DNA of 49,280 nucleotides from a virus, in UHGV virus genome UHGV-0151084; one strand, given 5' to 3'. The translations under genes and the position numbers were made by a program. Below are positions 4,542-48,277 of the stretch, in pieces; positions within the stretch are counted from its first letter, which is position 1; every line of letters begins with the position of its first letter. The notes beneath the pieces were generated by a model. That model saw only the letters and a list, made by a program, of their open reading frames with translations. It was not told the DNA's origin and did not search any database.

Positions 4542-5543
4542 TTAATACCCATTAATTACTCTTCGGACATCAATCGAGGTGGTATAACCACTAGCCCCAA
4601 TTGAATGCACAGCTTTCGATATAAGATATTTTCCAGAAAATGAACCGAATCCGTCCAGATTTATAGTTACACCAGCTACCAATCTGGTGTCTCCAACCAA
4701 TACTAAAGATCCTGTATTTTGATATCTATTTTTAAGCCGCAAAGCAGCCTTTGCCTTACGTTTTGCTTCATCTAAATTAGCTACCAGTTTTCTTATCTTA
4801 AGATTCGACCCTTCTTCTACGGATGGATCTACCCAAGTATACGAAAGCGACTTTCTTTTTTTAGGTACGCGATATTTGCACGTGCAACTTTTATACAAAT
4901 CTGTAGATTGTGTGCTAAAGCTATATCTGATTATCTCATCAATACCTAACGTAAGCGTAGCGATAGGATCTTTTTGCTCAAACATCTCTTGAGCAAATAT
5001 TATTAATTGGCTATCAGTGACCTTTAACGACAACCCTTCATCCTGGCATAGTCGATGGAGAAATTTTAAATCGCTTTCCTCCATTTGATCTTCACGCGCA
5101 TAATATGGATTACTATCACCATCAATAAGAAACAACAGTTCAAGGTTAGCTAATTTAGCTATAGAGGTTGCTATATCTTTAAGAGTTGTTTTTTCCCATG
5201 CATTACTTTTTAAATCACGTCTAATGCCTGATGAAACAGGAACAGAAACAGCAGTCACCTCAACAACAGAAGGTGGTCCAGAGCAAGTTATGCCATCTAC
5301 CTGGAATTTCCCGCACTCAAGGACGATTTGATTTATAGGCTTAAAGCTCAAATCAATAAAATCACCCTTTTTAGGTGTCCAGTCTCCAGACCATTTCCCA
5401 TCATCATTTTTTAATATAATAGAAATATCATCGACCTGACCATCTTCATTATCTGTATAAGACATTGACAAAACATCAGGTGACATATGAGCGGTAATAT
5501 TTACATTCTGATATATAACATCAAAAAGCGTTTTACGTAACAC
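4542..5543 (-). CDS. Tail protein, gpD-like
   Basis: 333 aa ORF immediately downstream of tape measure and X-like genes, as in P2/Mu-like tail modules. Confidence 0.55.
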   Translation of the reverse strand: MLRKTLFDVIYQNVNITAHMSPDVLSMSYTDNEDGQVDDISIILKNDDGKWSGDWTPKKGDFIDLSFKPINQIVLECGKFQVDGITCSGPPSVVEVTAVSVPVSSGIRRDLKSNAWEKTTLKDIATSIAKLANLELLFLIDGDSNPYYAREDQMEESDLKFLHRLCQDEGLSLKVTDSQLIIFAQEMFEQKDPIATLTLGIDEIIRYSFSTQSTDLYKSCTCKYRVPKKRKSLSYTWVDPSVEEGSNLKIRKLVANLDEAKRKAKAALRLKNRYQNTGSLVLVGDTRLVAGVTINLDGFGSFSGKYLISKAVHSIGASGYTTSIDVRRVINGY

Positions 5544-38291: not shown

Positions 38292-38396
38292 TGAATGCGC
38301 CATTGGTGGACACTTTCCGAGCCGTAGCAAAATCTACGGTCGGGATTAGCCTCCTGAATAACACGATGGCGCATACCGCGTTAGCGGTTTTTTTAT
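38292..38396 (+). ncRNA. Candidate structured RNA upstream of antirepressor operon
   Basis: TTGAC at 38286, internal hairpin CCGTAG/CTACGG, terminator ACCGC-GTTA-GCGGT + T7; shares GATTAGCCTC with the downstream leader. Confidence 0.3.
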
Positions 38397-38556
38397 GCGT
38401 AGAGCACTGTTACGCCCAAATTATGGTGGGTCGTACAGGGGCGGAGAAATCCGCGCCGGTTCGTCATTGTGTCCGGTAAGGCTAACCCTGTACGGCTCAC
38501 CACCATTTGATTAGCCTCGAATGGCGGTGATAGTTCCATATACTGGAGATATCACA

Positions 38557-40821: not shown

Positions 40822-41094
40822 TCATTTGATCCCTTGTTCCAATTCTGCCGACACTTTAACCTTTTCCCATACAAGGGTTTGCAGCCTTAACAGAATCGCA
40901 TCTTTATCAAGGTGTGAAAGATCCTTAACCATATCGTCAAACGACAGAACGCGAATGGCCATCTCCATGACCCTCGGCGGCACCCCCTTCTCATATCGCT
41001 TATATGTAGCCAACGATATCCCAAACTCTTCGGCGGCTCGCTCCTGCGTCCAGTTCATCCCACGACGCCATAATTTCAATTCGTAACCCGTCAT
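40822..41094 (-). CDS. XRE-family HTH regulator
   Basis: 90 aa; HTH (MNWTQERAAEEFGISLATYKRYEKG). Confidence 0.55.
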   Translation of the reverse strand: MTGYELKLWRRGMNWTQERAAEEFGISLATYKRYEKGVPPRVMEMAIRVLSFDDMVKDLSHLDKDAILLRLQTLVWEKVKVSAELEQGIK

Positions 41095-41195
41095 TACATC
41101 CTCTACCTTTCCCTAGATATTCAATAAATTAGACATAGCCACTCACGACAAAATAAGATGTATTAACAATCCAATCTTTAGGCTTTAGGTAAAAA

Positions 41196-41621
41196 ATGAG
41201 TTCATCTGCTTTTGTCACCGTGGTCACTGGTGTAAGTGTTTTTGTTCTAGGCCAACTCATCGTCAAAGGAGCTATTGAGCCTTACATTTCATTCAGGGAA
41301 CAACTAGGGAAAATATCCAATCTGTTATTGTGTAACCAAGCAAAAATAGTGAATCCTGGCTCGAACTTAAAGCCAGAAATCATTCATGATCTAAAAGATT
41401 CCGCAGCACAGTTAATGGCGAAATATTCCACTTTACCTTTCTATATCAAAAAGTTACATATCGGCTTTCGTCTTGTTCCATCAGACACCGAGATTCTTGG
41501 GGCAGCTCAAAATTTGAACTATATAGCGTCAATACATGAAGGTAAGACTGGGGAGAATCCATCTAAGCATCTCGAAGAGATTGGCCATATGCTCAAAATA
41601 CCAACTACCTATTCAAGCTAA
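41196..41621 (+). CDS. Hypothetical single-pass membrane protein (AT-rich accessory gene)
   Basis: 141 aa; N-terminal TM helix; lower GC than surroundings; divergent from HTH regulator. Confidence 0.4.
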   Translation: MSSSAFVTVVTGVSVFVLGQLIVKGAIEPYISFREQLGKISNLLLCNQAKIVNPGSNLKPEIIHDLKDSAAQLMAKYSTLPFYIKKLHIGFRLVPSDTEILGAAQNLNYIASIHEGKTGENPSKHLEEIGHMLKIPTTYSS

Positions 41622-41724
41622 CCCAATGTAAGTTATCGGCTTGCCCCACAATAAGTTATCTATCTTCAAACGCCCCCTATATTAACACGCGCAAAGTGTC
41701 AAAATGACACTTTGCGCATTGTGT

Positions 41725-42105
41725 TTACTTAACGAGGAATAAAAATGGTTTATTGTTCGGCGGTGTAATCGGGGCTGGCTCGCTTTTGCTCATGCGATCA
41801 GTGTACCAGGCCAACTCCTTGTCAAAGTAAGCCTGATTAAAATAGGCCATGAATGTAGTTTCAAATCCATAACGACCGCTAATACGCAGCATCTGATTGC
41901 CGTTCTCTGTTTCCAGATATACCTGGGCACGTTCCTGATTCTCCTTCAGCCAGGTTAAAGCCTCATCGCATGAGGACACACGATACTCATCATCGTAGCA
42001 GTCATCGATGCGGCTTGAGGAAGAACGGCAAATCACGCCAACAGAACCAGCCAGGATAGTTTGAATTTTAAGGAAAGCGTTTTTGCGGATTTTAATCATG
42101 CTCAT
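41725..42105 (-). CDS. Hypothetical protein, gene behind copy 3 of the repeated promoter module
   Basis: 126 aa; N-terminal hydrophobic signal-like segment. Confidence 0.45.
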   Translation of the reverse strand: MSMIKIRKNAFLKIQTILAGSVGVICRSSSSRIDDCYDDEYRVSSCDEALTWLKENQERAQVYLETENGNQMLRISGRYGFETTFMAYFNQAYFDKELAWYTDRMSKSEPAPITPPNNKPFLFLVK

Positions 42106-42225
42106 CGGGTTATCTCCGGTTTAACCAGGGCGGGTATCGCTCGGTTTCGGGTATAACCTTAGGAAATTTTTTCCCACATGTAAAGCACTTTTTATATAAA
42201 TCTATAATTATATAATTCTGTGAGC
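42106..42225 (-). promoter_or_regulatory. Repeated promoter/leader module, copy 3
   Basis: Near-identical to copies 1 and 2; preceded upstream by a terminator at 42227-42254. Confidence 0.6.
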
Positions 42226-42226
42226 A

Positions 42227-42254
42227 CAAAAAAGCCCCTTTGCAACAGGGGCTT
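42227..42254 (-). terminator. Rho-independent terminator downstream of HigA-like gene
   Basis: Hairpin AGCCCCT/AGGGGCT followed by T6 on minus strand. Confidence 0.6.
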
Positions 42255-42268
42255 ATCATTCGTTCTGA

Positions 42269-42568
42269 TCAGATGTTAAACGCTATTCGTTTTCCTGTGG
42301 GAAGCTCAACATCCAGGCTTAATTTGCCTCCCATAGCTTCAACGTAACGCTTTAATGTCGCCAGCTTTAAATCATTTCCGCGCTGCTCCAGCTTTGTTAC
42401 TGCTGGCTGGCTTATACCCATCGCCTCAGCAACCTGTTTTTGTGATAACTGGAGTTCTTCACGCATCATCTGCAAGCCGACCTCAAGAATCATCTCATCT
42501 GCCATTTCTTTAATTCGCGCCTGGCTTTCCGGTGAACGGCTGGCAATCGCCTCATCTAATGTTCTCAT
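42269..42568 (-). CDS. higA: HigA-like HTH antitoxin
   Basis: 99 aa; HTH (LSQKQVAEAMGISQPAVTKLE); start overlaps toxin stop. Confidence 0.65.
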   Translation of the reverse strand: MRTLDEAIASRSPESQARIKEMADEMILEVGLQMMREELQLSQKQVAEAMGISQPAVTKLEQRGNDLKLATLKRYVEAMGGKLSLDVELPTGKRIAFNI

Positions 42569-42921
42569 TACTTGCTCTCCAGTGTGTTCAGATGTGCTGC
42601 AAACTCATCCTCAGCTATACGCACCAGTTTTTCATAAAACCGCTTATCGTTACTTTTGTCTCCTGCACAAAGAACGATGGCCCGGCGAATCGGATCGAAC
42701 GCATAAAAGGCTCTTATCGGACGGCCAGAAAACTGAACGCGAAGCTCTTTCATATTTTTGTACCGAGAACCTTTTACGGTATCGGCATATGGCCTAGGTA
42801 ACTCAGGTCCGTAAACCTGTAGCTTTTTCAAATCAGCCAAAACCTTTTCCTGAAGAGCGTCTTCTTGCTCATTTAGCCAGTCGTCAAATCGCTGGCTAAA
42901 AAGTACCGTCCACATGCTCAA
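42568..42921 (-). CDS. higB: HigB/RelE-family toxin (addiction-module killer)
   Basis: 117 aa; toxin-upstream-of-antitoxin arrangement; C-terminal region resembles RelE/ParE-superfamily killers. Confidence 0.65.
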   Translation of the reverse strand: MSMWTVLFSQRFDDWLNEQEDALQEKVLADLKKLQVYGPELPRPYADTVKGSRYKNMKELRVQFSGRPIRAFYAFDPIRRAIVLCAGDKSNDKRFYEKLVRIAEDEFAAHLNTLESK

Positions 42922-44377: not shown

Positions 44378-45226
44378 TTAATGTTGGAGTGATTTCCAAG
44401 TCTTTCTTAACCTGTTATAACGCTGCTCAACGAGGGATCGTAAATATGCAAGGTCAGCTCCAGGATACATGCCATCAGCAAATTCCTGGCTAACCTCTCT
44501 AGTGATTTGATGACGAAGTTCGGCCTCTCCCTTTTCCCGAACAAGACGCGCAGCTCTCTCCGCTGCTTTCTGTTTTGCCTTTATCTCTCTGGCCGTCTTC
44601 CTCTGACGCCATACATTCTCCATCTGCTCCTGAATAACAATACGCTTATAATCAGCCTCCGTTATCGCTTTTTTAAGCCGTTCGCTATTCTTCGCATTGA
44701 AGTAATTAAGTTTCTGGCTAACCGCACGTCTCCATGCTTGTTCAGTAATACCAACGGTTTCCAGCAGTTGATCACGAATCTCTATTTTCGCTGGCCAATA
44801 CTGTTTATTCACCCGATCCCAGCGACGTTCATAATCAATAAAACCTAACGCTTTCAGTTGCGACAACGCCCTTGTACAGCGCGTTATAGACTTGTTCCCA
44901 GCTTCGGATACGGTAGACAGACCGCAAAAATCAGCCAACGCCTCAGCACTGGCCAGAACCCGCTTAGAAATGATGTTTACATGGTGCAAAATCGCAGCAA
45001 TCACAGCATTAATCGCCCGACGACGATGCTCGTTTATCCGGCGTTTCCGCTCTGACGGTTGATTAACGTAGAACGCAACCTCACACGTAAGATCACGACC
45101 ATTAATGCGCTGTAAAGCATCAGATAACACCAGCGGCAGCTTGTGCGTATGGTGCTTTGGAGGCTGGAACTCCGGCGACAAATTACAAACGTAAGCTGAA
45201 CGTAGAGACGGCATTGGTCTATCCAT
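44378..45226 (-). CDS. repA: Replication initiator RepA, IncFII (RepFIIA)-type
   Basis: Central region LSTVSEAGNKSITRCTRALSQLKALGFIDYE aligns with IncFII RepA1 (LATESAAGKLSITRATRALTFLSELGLITYQ); start placed at internal ATG 45226. Confidence 0.8.
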   Translation of the reverse strand: MDRPMPSLRSAYVCNLSPEFQPPKHHTHKLPLVLSDALQRINGRDLTCEVAFYVNQPSERKRRINEHRRRAINAVIAAILHHVNIISKRVLASAEALADFCGLSTVSEAGNKSITRCTRALSQLKALGFIDYERRWDRVNKQYWPAKIEIRDQLLETVGITEQAWRRAVSQKLNYFNAKNSERLKKAITEADYKRIVIQEQMENVWRQRKTAREIKAKQKAAERAARLVREKGEAELRHQITREVSQEFADGMYPGADLAYLRSLVEQRYNRLRKTWKSLQH

Positions 45227-45241
45227 ATGTTCGCTCTTGCG

Positions 45242-45348
45242 TCCACGGAAAACCAACGTATAATGGGAGTTGTCGAGGCGCCCATGGTTAATTGTTGGTT
45301 TTCCGTGGATGTCGCAAGAAGCCCGCAGATTTATCTGCGGGCTTTTTG
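45242..45348 (+). ncRNA. Candidate CopA-like antisense RNA in repA leader
   Basis: Plus strand: perfect 16-bp inverted repeat (45242-45257 / 45294-45309) then terminator GCCCGCAGAT/ATCTGCGGGC + T5, antisense to the repA 5' region. Confidence 0.45.
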
Positions 45349-45536
45349 TTTCCATATCTGGTCGCTTTCCAACCAGACACCCACAATCATAACCACGTTA
45401 CGTGGTTTTAAGAGAACTCTACCACAACACTTTCGGTCATGCACGAAGTCTCTCACTGATCGAACGATAATCCACCAGTAAAAGGATCTAAATTGGATCT
45501 CGTTTTGCGAGCATCATACTACTGGCCTAACTCCAG

Positions 45537-46091
45537 TCAATGATTCCCAGCCGGAAACCTGCGGTAAAGCGTGGATAAGGTAACATCGAAGATAATCGCT
45601 ATCCGCTTACGTGAAACACCATTCGCAATAAGCCTTCCGATCTGTTCCCATTGCTCTGGGGCCAATTTTGAGCGGCGTCCTCCTATCCTGCCATTAGCCC
45701 TTGCCACCGCCAATCCTGCACGCGTTCTTTCAATCATATTTTCCCGCTCCATCTCTGCGACTGCACTCAGCATCGTGTAGGCAAAGCGGCCAATTGAAGT
45801 GCTAATTTTTATCCCTTCCGTAATCGAAATAAACTCAATGTTGTTTGATAAAAAATGGTTAAGTAAATCAACAAGATGAATCAGAGAACGCCCCATTCGA
45901 TCCAGCTTCCAGACAATAACCGTATCGCCCGGCCGTAACACCTTCAGTAGCTTATCAAGCCCTGGTCGTTTTGATTTAGCACCGGATATTTTATCTTCAA
46001 AAATCCGGTCACATCCTGAACTCCTGAGCGCCTCCAGTTGTAATTCCAAATTCTGGTCAAAAGTTGACACCCTCGCATAACCATATTGCAT
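45537..46091 (-). CDS. Serine DNA invertase, Gin/Cin/Hin family
   Basis: 184 aa; YARVSTFDQ catalytic-serine motif, C-terminal HTH; 64 bp from gix-like site B. Confidence 0.85.
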   Translation of the reverse strand: MQYGYARVSTFDQNLELQLEALRSSGCDRIFEDKISGAKSKRPGLDKLLKVLRPGDTVIVWKLDRMGRSLIHLVDLLNHFLSNNIEFISITEGIKISTSIGRFAYTMLSAVAEMERENMIERTRAGLAVARANGRIGGRRSKLAPEQWEQIGRLIANGVSRKRIAIIFDVTLSTLYRRFPAGNH

Positions 46092-46119
46092 ACTTTCTAA
46101 ACCGCGATTGTTGCTAAAA

Positions 46120-46194
46120 GCGGGAAAAAATATCGTTCAGACGACACAGAGGCAATTCGCAAAAACCTCGGTTTACAGGAAACGGTAAACAAGG
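46120..46194. repeat. Left arm of inverted repeat flanking invertible tail-fibre cassettes
   Basis: 75 bp with 2 mismatches to the reverse complement of 49206-49280. Confidence 0.8.
46156..46181. other. gix-like recombination site B (TTCGCAAAAACCTCGGTTTACAGGAA)
   Basis: Inverted relative to sites A and C. Confidence 0.6.
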
Positions 46195-46205
46195 CTGGTA
46201 ACGCC

Positions 46206-47186
46206 GTGCAAAAGACAGGCGATACCTTGTCCGGTGGACTTACTTTTGAAAACGACTCAATCCTTGCCTGGATTCGGAATACTGACTGGGCAAAGATTGG
46301 ATTTAAAAATGATGCCGACAGCGACACTGATTCATACATGTGGTTTGAAACAGGCGACAACGGCAATGAATATTTCAAATGGAGAAGCAAACAAAGCACC
46401 ACAACAAAAGACCTGATGAATCTTAAATGGGATGCTTTGTATGTTCTTGTCAATGCCATTGTAAATGGCGAAGTCATATCAAAATCAGCAAACGGCCTAC
46501 GTATTGCTTATGGTAATTACGGATTCTTTATTCGTAATGATGGTTCAAATACATACTTCATGTTGACAAACTCCGGTGACAACATGGGGACTTATAACGG
46601 ATTAAGGCCATTATGGATTAATAACGCTACTGGCGCTGTTTCGATGGGGCGTGGCCTTAATGTTTCAGGGGAGACACTTTCAGACCGTTTTGCTATTAAC
46701 AGCAGTAATGGTATGTGGATTCAGATGCGCGATAACAACGCTATCTTTGGGAAAAATATAGTTAACACTGATAGCGCTCAGGCGTTGCTTCGCCAGAATC
46801 ACGCCGACCGAAAGTTCATGATAGGTGGACTGGGGAACAAGCAATTTGGCATCTACATGATTAATAACTCAAGGACAGCCAATGGCACCGATGGTCAGGC
46901 GTACATGGATAATAACGGGAACTGGCTTTGCGGCTCGCAAGTTATTCCCGGAAACTATGGCAATTTTGACTCCAGATATGTGAAAGATGTTCGACTTGGT
47001 TCACAGCAATATTATGGAGTGAACAACTGGCAAACATGGAATTTCCAGTGCCCGTCAGGTCATGTATTGTCTGGTATTAATGTTCAGGATACAGGGTCCA
47101 ACTCTGCCGATAATATAGCGGGCGTTTATTACAGACCCGTTCAAAAGTATATAAATGGCACCTGGTATAATGTAGCGAGCGTTTAA
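46206..47186 (+). CDS. Tail fibre variable C-terminal cassette (Sv'-like), currently not joined to the constant region
   Basis: Frame is open from 46101 through site B; first residues [15 protein letters not shown] identical to the end of the constant gene at the window start. Confidence 0.75.
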
Positions 47187-47187
47187 T

Positions 47188-47715
47188 ATGATGCACTTAA
47201 AGAACATAAAAGCGGGTAACGCTAAAACACTGGAACAGTATGAGTTAACAAAGAAACACGGAGTTATCTGGCTTTACTCTGAGGACGGAAAAAACTGGTA
47301 TGAGGAAGTGAAAAACTTTCAGTCAGACACAATAAAGATTGTTTACGATGCAAATAATATTATTGTCGCCATCACTAAAGATGCCTCCACGCTTAACCCT
47401 GAAGGTTTTAGCGTCGTTGAGGTTCCAGATATTACAGCCAACCGCCGCGCTGATGATTCAGGAAAGTGGATGTTTAAGGATGGAGCTGTAGTTAAACGGA
47501 TTTATACGGCAGACGAACAGCAACAACAAGCCGAATCACAAAAGGCCGCATTGCTTTCCGAAGCTGAATCAGTCATCCAGCCGCTGGAACGCGCTGTCAG
47601 GCTGAATATGGCAACAGACGAGGAACGCACACGACTGGAAACATGGGAACGCTACAGTGTTCTGGTCAGCCGTGTGGATACGGCAAATCCTGAATGGCCA
47701 CAAAAGCCTGAGTAA
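47188..47715 (+). CDS. Tail fibre assembly protein (Tfa, U'-like)
   Basis: 175 aa; conserved Tfa pattern (NWYEE...[14 protein letters not shown]...KWMFKDG). Confidence 0.8.
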
Positions 47716-47721
47716 AAATTA

Positions 47722-47740
47722 AGGCCCGATATCGGGCCTT
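47722..47740. terminator. Bidirectional hairpin between convergent Tfa genes
   Basis: AGGCCCGATATCGGGCCT palindrome. Confidence 0.5.
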
Positions 47741-47743
47741 CTC

Positions 47744-48277
47744 TCATTCTGGTTGTTCGGGAAACGTTACTGGCAGGCTGGAGGTGTCTGTGGATTCGAC
47801 TTTCTGCGCGTAGAGCATCCACTCGGTTAATTTTTGTTTATTCTCGTCGGAAATGATGCCCAGCCGTAGCTGTGAGTCCCATAGCTGGGTTTTATCCCTG
47901 ACAAGTTGCAACAGGCTTTGCTTTTCATTCTCTGCCTGCTGCCTCTGTTCCTCCTCGGTATAAGTTCGCTTTATCACTACGCCATCTTTGAACATCCATT
48001 TACCCGAAATATCAGCCCGGCGATTTGCTGTAATATCAGGTAATTCAACGACGCTTGCGCCTTCTGGATTAATTGCTGAAACATCCTTTTCAATACAAAT
48101 AATAACGCCGTTGTGGTCATAGACCATTTTCAACGTATCAGGCTGAAAGTTCTTTTGTTCCTCATACCAGTTTTCCCCATCCTCTGTATAAAGCCATTTG
48201 ATGTTAAATTGTTTCGTTAGCTGGTATTGCTCTTTTGTTTTAGGGTTGCCAGCAGTAATATTTTTTAAGTGCATCAT
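47744..48277 (-). CDS. Tail fibre assembly protein (Tfa, U-like)
   Basis: 177 aa paralog of 47188..47715. Confidence 0.8.
   Translation of the reverse strand: MMHLKNITAGNPKTKEQYQLTKQFNIKWLYTEDGENWYEEQKNFQPDTLKMVYDHNGVIICIEKDVSAINPEGASVVELPDITANRRADISGKWMFKDGVVIKRTYTEEEQRQQAENEKQSLLQLVRDKTQLWDSQLRLGIISDENKQKLTEWMLYAQKVESTDTSSLPVTFPEQPE

Follow-up and report, generated by a model that had tools for sequence, protein, structure and literature searches.

A single-gene accessory cassette encoding a predicted membrane-anchored four-helix-bundle protein in a ~48-kb phage-plasmid

Here we describe a small locus (positions 40,822 to 42,105) of UHGV virus genome UHGV-0151084, the 49,280-nucleotide stretch referred to throughout as the window, which is a ~48-kb myovirus-type phage-plasmid. 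The locus contains ORF141, a plus-strand open reading frame (ORF), flanked by two minus-strand genes, one for the small helix-turn-helix (HTH) protein HTH90 and the other for ORF126 (Table 1). A first-pass annotation made from the sequence had described ORF141 as an accessory gene for a small membrane protein, running opposite to its neighbours, belonging to no recognised family and paired with the divergent HTH regulator, and had likened it to superinfection-exclusion or abortive-infection (Abi) factors. The reading frame, its orientation, its N-terminal membrane helix and its accessory status are confirmed here; the proposed pairing is not. Comparison with near-identical phage-plasmids indicates instead that ORF141 is the only gene of a cassette present in some of these elements and absent from others.

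The sample comprised 62 PLSDB plasmids with the ORF126 and HTH90 backbone. ORF141 is present in 12 of these, in which the region spans 1284 bp, and absent from at least 45, in which it spans 717-719 bp and is thus 567 bp shorter. The gap between ORF126 and HTH90 is 63 bp in plasmid pHN68-3 and at least 45 others, versus 630 bp in the window; HTH90 comes directly after ORF126 in pHN68-3, and ORF126 lies directly upstream of HTH90 in the cassette-less relatives checked. In blastn comparisons with cassette-less relatives the backbone homology ends at 41094-41103 and starts again at 41679, and these two points therefore delimit the cassette. Since its left edge coincides with the HTH90 start codon, the entire divergent intergenic region arrived with ORF141. 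The cassette runs antisense to both of its co-oriented neighbours, and we found no terminal repeats or target duplications flanking it and no Rfam match within it. It separates genes that are neighbours in close relatives and consists of a promoter-like region and a single gene, which gives it, on its sequence, the make-up of a classical "moron". The locus had also been called an AT-rich island: the GC content of ORF141 is indeed lower than that of the window (39.4% vs 44.5%), as is the GC content at its third codon positions relative to its neighbours (0.37 vs 0.45-0.55), but a value at the 17th percentile of same-size windows makes "island" an overstatement.

ORF141 is a real coding gene under purifying selection: the ratio of non-synonymous to synonymous substitution rates (dN/dS) against six homologues is 0.13-0.19 and its profile recovers several hundred representative clusters. 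A word-indexed search returned 37 close clusters, from Enterobacterales and all labelled "hypothetical", and a profile search of 1.84 billion representatives returned 712 clusters at E <= 1e-3 and 126 at E <= 1e-10, with a length of 135-155 aa for nearly all of the profile matches listed. Longer members (185-231 aa) were considered as potentially informative domain fusions and set aside, as they seem to result from mis-called starts or from fusion with unrelated fragments. Using tblastn, the family was located on 347 plasmids, 321 of them from E. coli and 264 conjugative, including the ColV-type IncF plasmid pVM01 and an IncX4 plasmid, and the orf109 product of phage D6 is a member with 71% identity to ORF141. 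A related-locus search based on an alignment of close members found only two species-representative genomes and nine viral contigs. At 4977-5420 in Candidatus Pantoea gossypiicola the family gene is split into two ORFs and is apparently a pseudogene.

No described family accounts for these proteins. ORF141 itself has no match in Pfam or NCBIfam, neither database holds a family matched by more than one of 65 diverse members, and no precomputed Pfam domain is attached to any cluster of the family. PADLOC-DB v2.0 hidden Markov models (HMMs), which do not include defence families described after 2023, gave no match to ORF141 at E <= 1 and none to the 65 members, and a sequence-profile search of the PDB gave spurious matches only (best E = 0.015). 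The sole PHROGs match of ORF141 is to phrog_7512, a family of no assigned function, at E 3e-74 and over the full length, and the 65 members add no other PHROGs family. A literature search found no papers for the protein accessions, phrog_7512 or the names of the Yersinia phages discussed below.

The cassette appears to bring its own means of expression. An alignment of seven unrelated replicon contexts of the family shows ~65 conserved bases upstream of the gene, which include TAGACA, a 17-18-nt spacer and (GA)TA(A/G)GAT, followed by the 5' untranslated region (5'UTR) up to the ATG of the residues MSSS. In the window these elements coincide with the promoter-like site that the consensus scan picked out at 41130-41159. 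Given this conserved 5' region, and because neighbour-ORF clustering over 21 distinct contexts revealed no universal partner gene, the mobile unit would be a promoter plus one gene, with ORF141 moving under its own predicted promoter. In the 5'UTR of ORF141 in the window (41173-41192), TTTAGG is locally duplicated (TTTAGG-C-TTTAGG), unlike in any of the six homologous upstream regions. The duplication takes the place of an upstream in-frame ATG (MIQSLGTI-) found in several plasmid relatives, and translation in the window should therefore begin at MSSS.

The ORF141 protein is predicted to be anchored by one membrane helix. On the Kyte-Doolittle scale its most hydrophobic 19-residue stretch begins at residue 5 (mean 2.23), and 99.6% of 240 family members have a hydropathy above 1.6, in agreement with a single hydrophobic helix of ~19 residues. 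Across these members the median length of the N-terminal tail is 4 residues; those with a tail of 12 residues or shorter (218/240) have on average 0.15 lysine or arginine residues before the helix versus ~2.4 in the 15 residues after it, and in 95% of the 240 members more such residues follow the helix than precede it. By the positive-inside rule, this bias leads to a predicted single-pass topology in which the 3-4-residue N-terminus of ORF141 is outside the cell and the C-terminal part cytoplasmic. An AlphaFold2 model built on a 65-sequence alignment (mean predicted local distance difference test score, pLDDT, 93.6; predicted template-modelling score, pTM, 0.84) has helices at residues 2-46, 60-78, 97-114 and 122-133, the first of which continuously spans the membrane segment and the first bundle helix, so that the protein is predicted to be a single N-terminal membrane helix running into a four-helix bundle. 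Among the top structural neighbours of the model are the sensor four-helix bundles of Tar and QseE, at non-significant scores.

The membrane anchor is the most conserved part of the protein. Over 221 members the most conserved columns are P29 and P95 (97%), Q20 (95%), G12 and F16 (89%) and T8 (87%), followed by K24 and E28, with V13 and G19 also conserved in the membrane segment and K24, E28 and P29 in a juxtamembrane position; the soluble bundle and a C-terminal I-x-T-x-Y motif are likewise conserved. No His, Cys, Ser or Asp column is conserved over the same members, and there are no conserved catalytic-type residues. That the anchor, which includes small residues and a buried Gln, is conserved above the rest of the protein suggests that it makes specific contacts with other helices in the membrane and does more than tether the bundle.

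We inspected ~20 genomic contexts of the family. In phage D6, orf109 lies between humD and phd/doc, and in other P1-like elements the family gene follows hot and humD. On Salmonella plasmids it comes directly after Phd/ParE genes or after a gene for a 318-aa AbiD protein (PADLOC E 5e-59), and on ColV plasmids it is found beside sitABCD. In a P2-like contig the gene adjoins a type II restriction-modification system (EcoRII-C plus methylase) just past gpA, which is the P2 tin/old position, and in a Chromohalobacter P2-like prophage (Csal_1381) it forms an opposite-strand islet between sheath and tail-fibre genes, the P2 fun(Z) position. It is placed between integrase and immunity genes in a Pseudoalteromonas P2-like element; in a lambdoid prophage of Atlantibacter it runs antisense, with replication gene P on one side and the nin genes on the other. 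In P2, both the gpA-gpQ locus and the Z/fun tail locus have been documented as hotspots for defence (PMC9122126; PMC13586616). Positions of this type mostly house antiviral genes, and most randomly chosen loci of unassigned function from P4 hotspots proved protective when tested (PMC13586616). The positions of the ORF141 relatives are suggestive of a defence role. A 159-167-aa protein that is absent from the window and has no Pfam or PADLOC match recurs beside the family gene in 5 of the 21 contexts, on ColV IncF, IncX4 and Salmonella plasmids. A gene for a 500-aa protein often lies downstream, and the three may constitute a block specific to one sub-family.

Table 1. Coordinates of the features discussed; positions are those of the window except where a related contig (L005, L008, L025, L026) is named
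Feature	Position	Strand	Description
Accessory cassette	~41104-41678		~575 bp, net 567-bp indel; between backbone genes ORF126 and HTH90
ORF141	41196-41621	+	141 aa; predicted N-terminal membrane helix and four-helix bundle; family of phage D6 orf109, phrog_7512
Transmembrane segment of ORF141 (codons 5-23)	41208-41264	+	Predicted from hydropathy; holds the family's most conserved positions
Promoter-like site TAGACA-18-TAAGAT	41130-41159	+	Consensus scan; inside the cassette, upstream of ORF141
HTH90	40822-41094	-	Small XRE-type HTH protein; Pfam HTH_3, E 1e-6, 29.2 bits vs cut-off 23
ORF126	41725-42105	-	phrog_8090; no Pfam match; signal-peptide-like N-terminus
Perfect palindrome	41689-41717		13-bp arms (GCGCAAAGTGTCA-AAA-TGACACTTTGCGC); between ORF126 and HTH90
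HigA	42269-42568		Pfam HTH_3
HigB	42568-42921		Pfam Gp49
RepA	44378-45355		Plasmid-maintenance/immunity part
ORF6N/Rha antirepressor	38745-40013		Gene preceded by C4-type antisense RNA
159-167-aa protein	L008 4404-4883; L025 2277-2756; L026 3329-3808; L005 7022-7525	-	

We tentatively favour, at somewhat less than even confidence, the reading that ORF141 is a moron expressed in the plasmid state whose product would keep out or abort other phages by working at the inner membrane. Superinfection exclusion or Abi is a reasonable guess because relatives occupy lysogenic-conversion or defence positions, or lie beside AbiD, restriction-modification or toxin-antitoxin genes. The protein would be produced under its own promoter during carriage of the element as a plasmid. 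Its membrane helix would contact other helices in the inner membrane, and the bundle would serve as a cytoplasmic domain for interaction or sensing. It could bind a host membrane component needed for the entry of incoming phage DNA, giving superinfection exclusion, or it could self-associate into a membrane lesion upon infection, giving abortive infection; either way the host and the resident element would be protected from other phages. A more ambitious version, which strikes us as unlikely, would make the ORF141/D6-orf109 family a new and widespread single-gene exclusion factor against phages or other mobile genetic elements, in which a sequence-specific membrane helix (T8-G12-F16-G19-Q20) is tethered to a cytoplasmic four-helix bundle and a promoter-plus-gene unit of ~0.5 kb moves among phages (P2-like, lambdoid and P1-like), phage-plasmids and conjugative plasmids. 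Several considerations count against protection from phages. There is no homology to a known defence or exclusion protein in PADLOC v2, PHROGs or hhalign comparisons with P22 SieA, SieB and HK97 gp15; most E. coli members are on conjugative plasmids (264/347), where other roles are equally plausible; the neighbourhood evidence is anecdotal, coming from ~20 contexts; closeness to toxin-antitoxin genes may be only an effect of the plasmid-maintenance region; and both the topology and the promoter of ORF141 are predictions. The main rival takes ORF141 as the same self-contained moron with a role unrelated to phage or plasmid exclusion, namely that of a membrane-tethered adaptor modulating a host inner-membrane process (transport, envelope stress or signalling) or aiding carriage of the element. 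Residence of most members on conjugative plasmids (IncX4 plasmids among them, and ColV plasmids where sitABCD is the neighbour) speaks for such a role, as do the 159-167-aa protein in the vicinity, the lack of a defence-family match and a fold like that of generic sensor-domain bundles, albeit not significantly so. The recurrence of relatives at P2 Z/fun and tin/old-type positions and beside AbiD and restriction-modification genes, in a setting where most genes are antiviral, argues in the other direction, and we regard this rival as quite possible while inclining against it.

The remaining explanations fare considerably worse. The module envisaged in the first-pass annotation, in which the XRE-type HTH protein is a repressor controlling ORF141 as an exclusion or Abi effector, had some grounds, as the HTH_3 domain of HTH90 is genuine and the two genes do diverge from a common 101-bp intergenic region (41095-41195). 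It is nevertheless largely refuted, and we consider it very improbable. HTH90 occurs without ORF141 in at least 45 of the 62 relatives, and HTH90 homologues (32-54% identity) are found on 3,780 plasmids, 3,301 of them conjugative, versus 347 plasmids for the ORF141 family; the co-occurrence across genomes expected of a regulator and its effector is not seen. Moreover, the intergenic region that the two genes share came with ORF141, the promoter-like region of ORF141 is conserved in contexts that lack an HTH gene, and no HTH90-type gene adjoins the family in the contexts examined outside this phage-plasmid lineage. An addiction function, with ORF141 as a membrane toxin that is curbed by an antisense RNA or an unrecognised partner and stabilises the plasmid state, is improbable too. 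Toxin-antitoxin genes are nearby in the window (HigBA) and elsewhere (Phd/Doc or Phd/ParE), a DUF433 gene overlaps the start of the family gene in one metagenomic contig, and an antisense promoter-like site can be read inside ORF141 at 41449-41422. However, no conserved partner gene of the kind that defines type II systems was found over the 21 contexts, the gene is a solo unit with its own promoter-like region in very different replicons, the cassette has no Rfam match, and the whole 141-aa protein is conserved, including the bundle and the I-x-T-x-Y motif, unlike the peptides of <60 aa that act as type I toxins. As for a holin, antiholin or spanin-like accessory protein, a small protein with one membrane helix would suit such a function, but ORF141 lies outside the lysis cassette, with holin and endolysin genes elsewhere in the element, is missing from most otherwise identical and presumably viable relatives, belongs to a family common on non-phage conjugative plasmids and matches no holin family in Pfam or PHROGs; we give this explanation almost no credence.

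In its genetic organisation ORF141 resembles the morons of temperate phages, such as HK97 gp15 and P2 fun(Z), tin and old. Like them it is a single accessory gene, has its own (predicted) promoter, separates two genes that adjoin each other in close relatives and is read antisense to both; its GC content is modestly lower, and its relatives take the very positions of fun(Z) and tin/old. It differs from typical morons in that its only downstream hairpin, the palindrome at 41689-41717, belongs to the backbone and not to the cassette. The likeness does not extend to sequence: the family HMM has no match among six-frame ORFs of P2, so the family is unrelated to Fun(Z), Tin and Old, and hhalign probabilities against P22 SieA (1.9%), P22 SieB (0.1%) and the 62-aa HK97 gp15 (1.0%) indicate no homology. 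ORF141 shares with these last three proteins the character of a small prophage- or plasmid-encoded inner-membrane protein without enzymatic motifs that would be made from the resident element and for which membrane contacts are implied, and any likeness would lie in function alone. Further single-protein superinfection-exclusion factors of the inner membrane are T4 Imm and lactococcal Sie2009. Compared with known exclusion proteins, the architecture of ORF141, one membrane helix and a probably cytoplasmic four-helix bundle, is its own. As in the Tar ligand-binding domain and QseE, the membrane helix passes directly into an up-down bundle of four helices; in contrast, those sensor domains lie in the periplasm, with a second membrane helix and signalling modules after them, whereas ORF141 ends after its predicted cytoplasmic bundle, and no Pfam 4HB_MCP match was obtained. 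Phage D6 orf109 and phrog_7512 represent the true family of ORF141 but have no assigned function, and membership is consequently silent on mechanism.

On a practical level, the cassette is a moron of an ordinary kind whose one gene belongs to a large, entirely unstudied family, which is not surprising in itself. Should the family prove protective, it would constitute a very compact, self-promoted defence or exclusion gene of 141 aa common to phages, phage-plasmids and conjugative plasmids of Enterobacterales and beyond. The intuition that the gene is accessory and possibly protective was reasonable, and ORF141 is a fair candidate for phage challenge, for which near-identical phage-plasmids with and without the cassette, such as p48 of strain 1428 and the 48.5-kb plasmid of ATCC 25922, provide a natural control. 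If it is not protective, the case still illustrates that a gene cannot be taken as half of a regulatory pair because it diverges from an HTH gene; here it was comparative presence and absence that decided the question.

The assignment of the window to a phage-plasmid is based on its relatives. It matches circular, non-mobilizable E. coli plasmids of ~48 kb at 98-99.5% identity, among them p48 from strain 1428 and a plasmid from ATCC 25922, as well as three Yersinia phages (vB_YpM_39, 41 and 44). In RefSeq, p48 is annotated with terminase, portal, capsid, tail tube, tape measure, baseplate, holins and endolysin together with ParA and a Hin-type recombinase adjoining tail-fibre genes, and RepA is annotated in the close relative pHN68-3; this combination of phage and plasmid genes identifies the element as a myovirus-type phage-plasmid. 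The pSLy3 phage-plasmid group was considered as its identity and rejected, as that group is related to SSU5. ORF141 is situated in the plasmid-maintenance and immunity part of the element, and the nearby HigBA genes form a separate, complete pair (42269-42921) apart from it.

HTH90 and ORF126 are backbone genes that lie outside the cassette, as is evident from their direct adjacency in cassette-less relatives and from their distributions, and they are probably a two-gene unit into which ORF141 was dropped in antisense. HTH90 is a very common small HTH protein of plasmids, one homologue of which is labelled "ygeA" in an IncF record. ORF126, by comparison, is limited to this phage-plasmid lineage (63 plasmid records); its N-terminus (MSMIKIRKNAFLKIQTILAGSVGVIC...) is signal-peptide-like and the protein contains three Cys residues, so that it could be a secreted or periplasmic accessory protein. 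The palindrome between the two genes is kept in cassette-less relatives and is thus a backbone element. It could be a terminator, possibly bidirectional and serving ORF141 transcription as well, or an operator for HTH90; as no second copy is present in the window, no operator network can be inferred.

The slot between ORF126 and the HTH gene has a different occupant in the Yersinia phages, in which the equivalent of window positions 41095-41678 is filled by an unrelated insert of ~323 bp. In vB_YpM_41 this insert (~4696-5018) is bounded by ~28-bp terminal inverted repeats (GGGGTTCCGTGGGCATTTCTGCGATAA ... TTATCGCAGAAATTCCCACGGAACCCC); it contains no ORF longer than 63 aa and no Rfam match, and looks like a miniature inverted-repeat transposable element (MITE).

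Elsewhere in the window, Rfam detects a C4 antisense RNA at 38419-38507 (+; 70.8 bits, E 1e-12), an isrK-like RNA at 38321-38394 (+; 65.7 bits) and a sub-threshold c4 a1b1 target at 38308-38360 (+). Judged by these matches, the RNAs at 38308-38507, just 5' of the ORF6N/Rha antirepressor gene, make up an immunity circuit of the P1/P7 immI type. At 45537-46091 and 46097-48277 the Hin-type recombinase adjoins oppositely oriented tail-fibre-assembly genes, an arrangement that suggests a host-range segment able to invert, as in P1 and Mu. A 49-aa ORF at 42110-42259 (-), which starts inside a terminator-like hairpin following higA (42254-42232) and is unannotated in RefSeq relatives, is probably not a gene; a promoter-like TTTACA-17-TAAGGT sequence for ORF126 can be read by eye within the same stretch.

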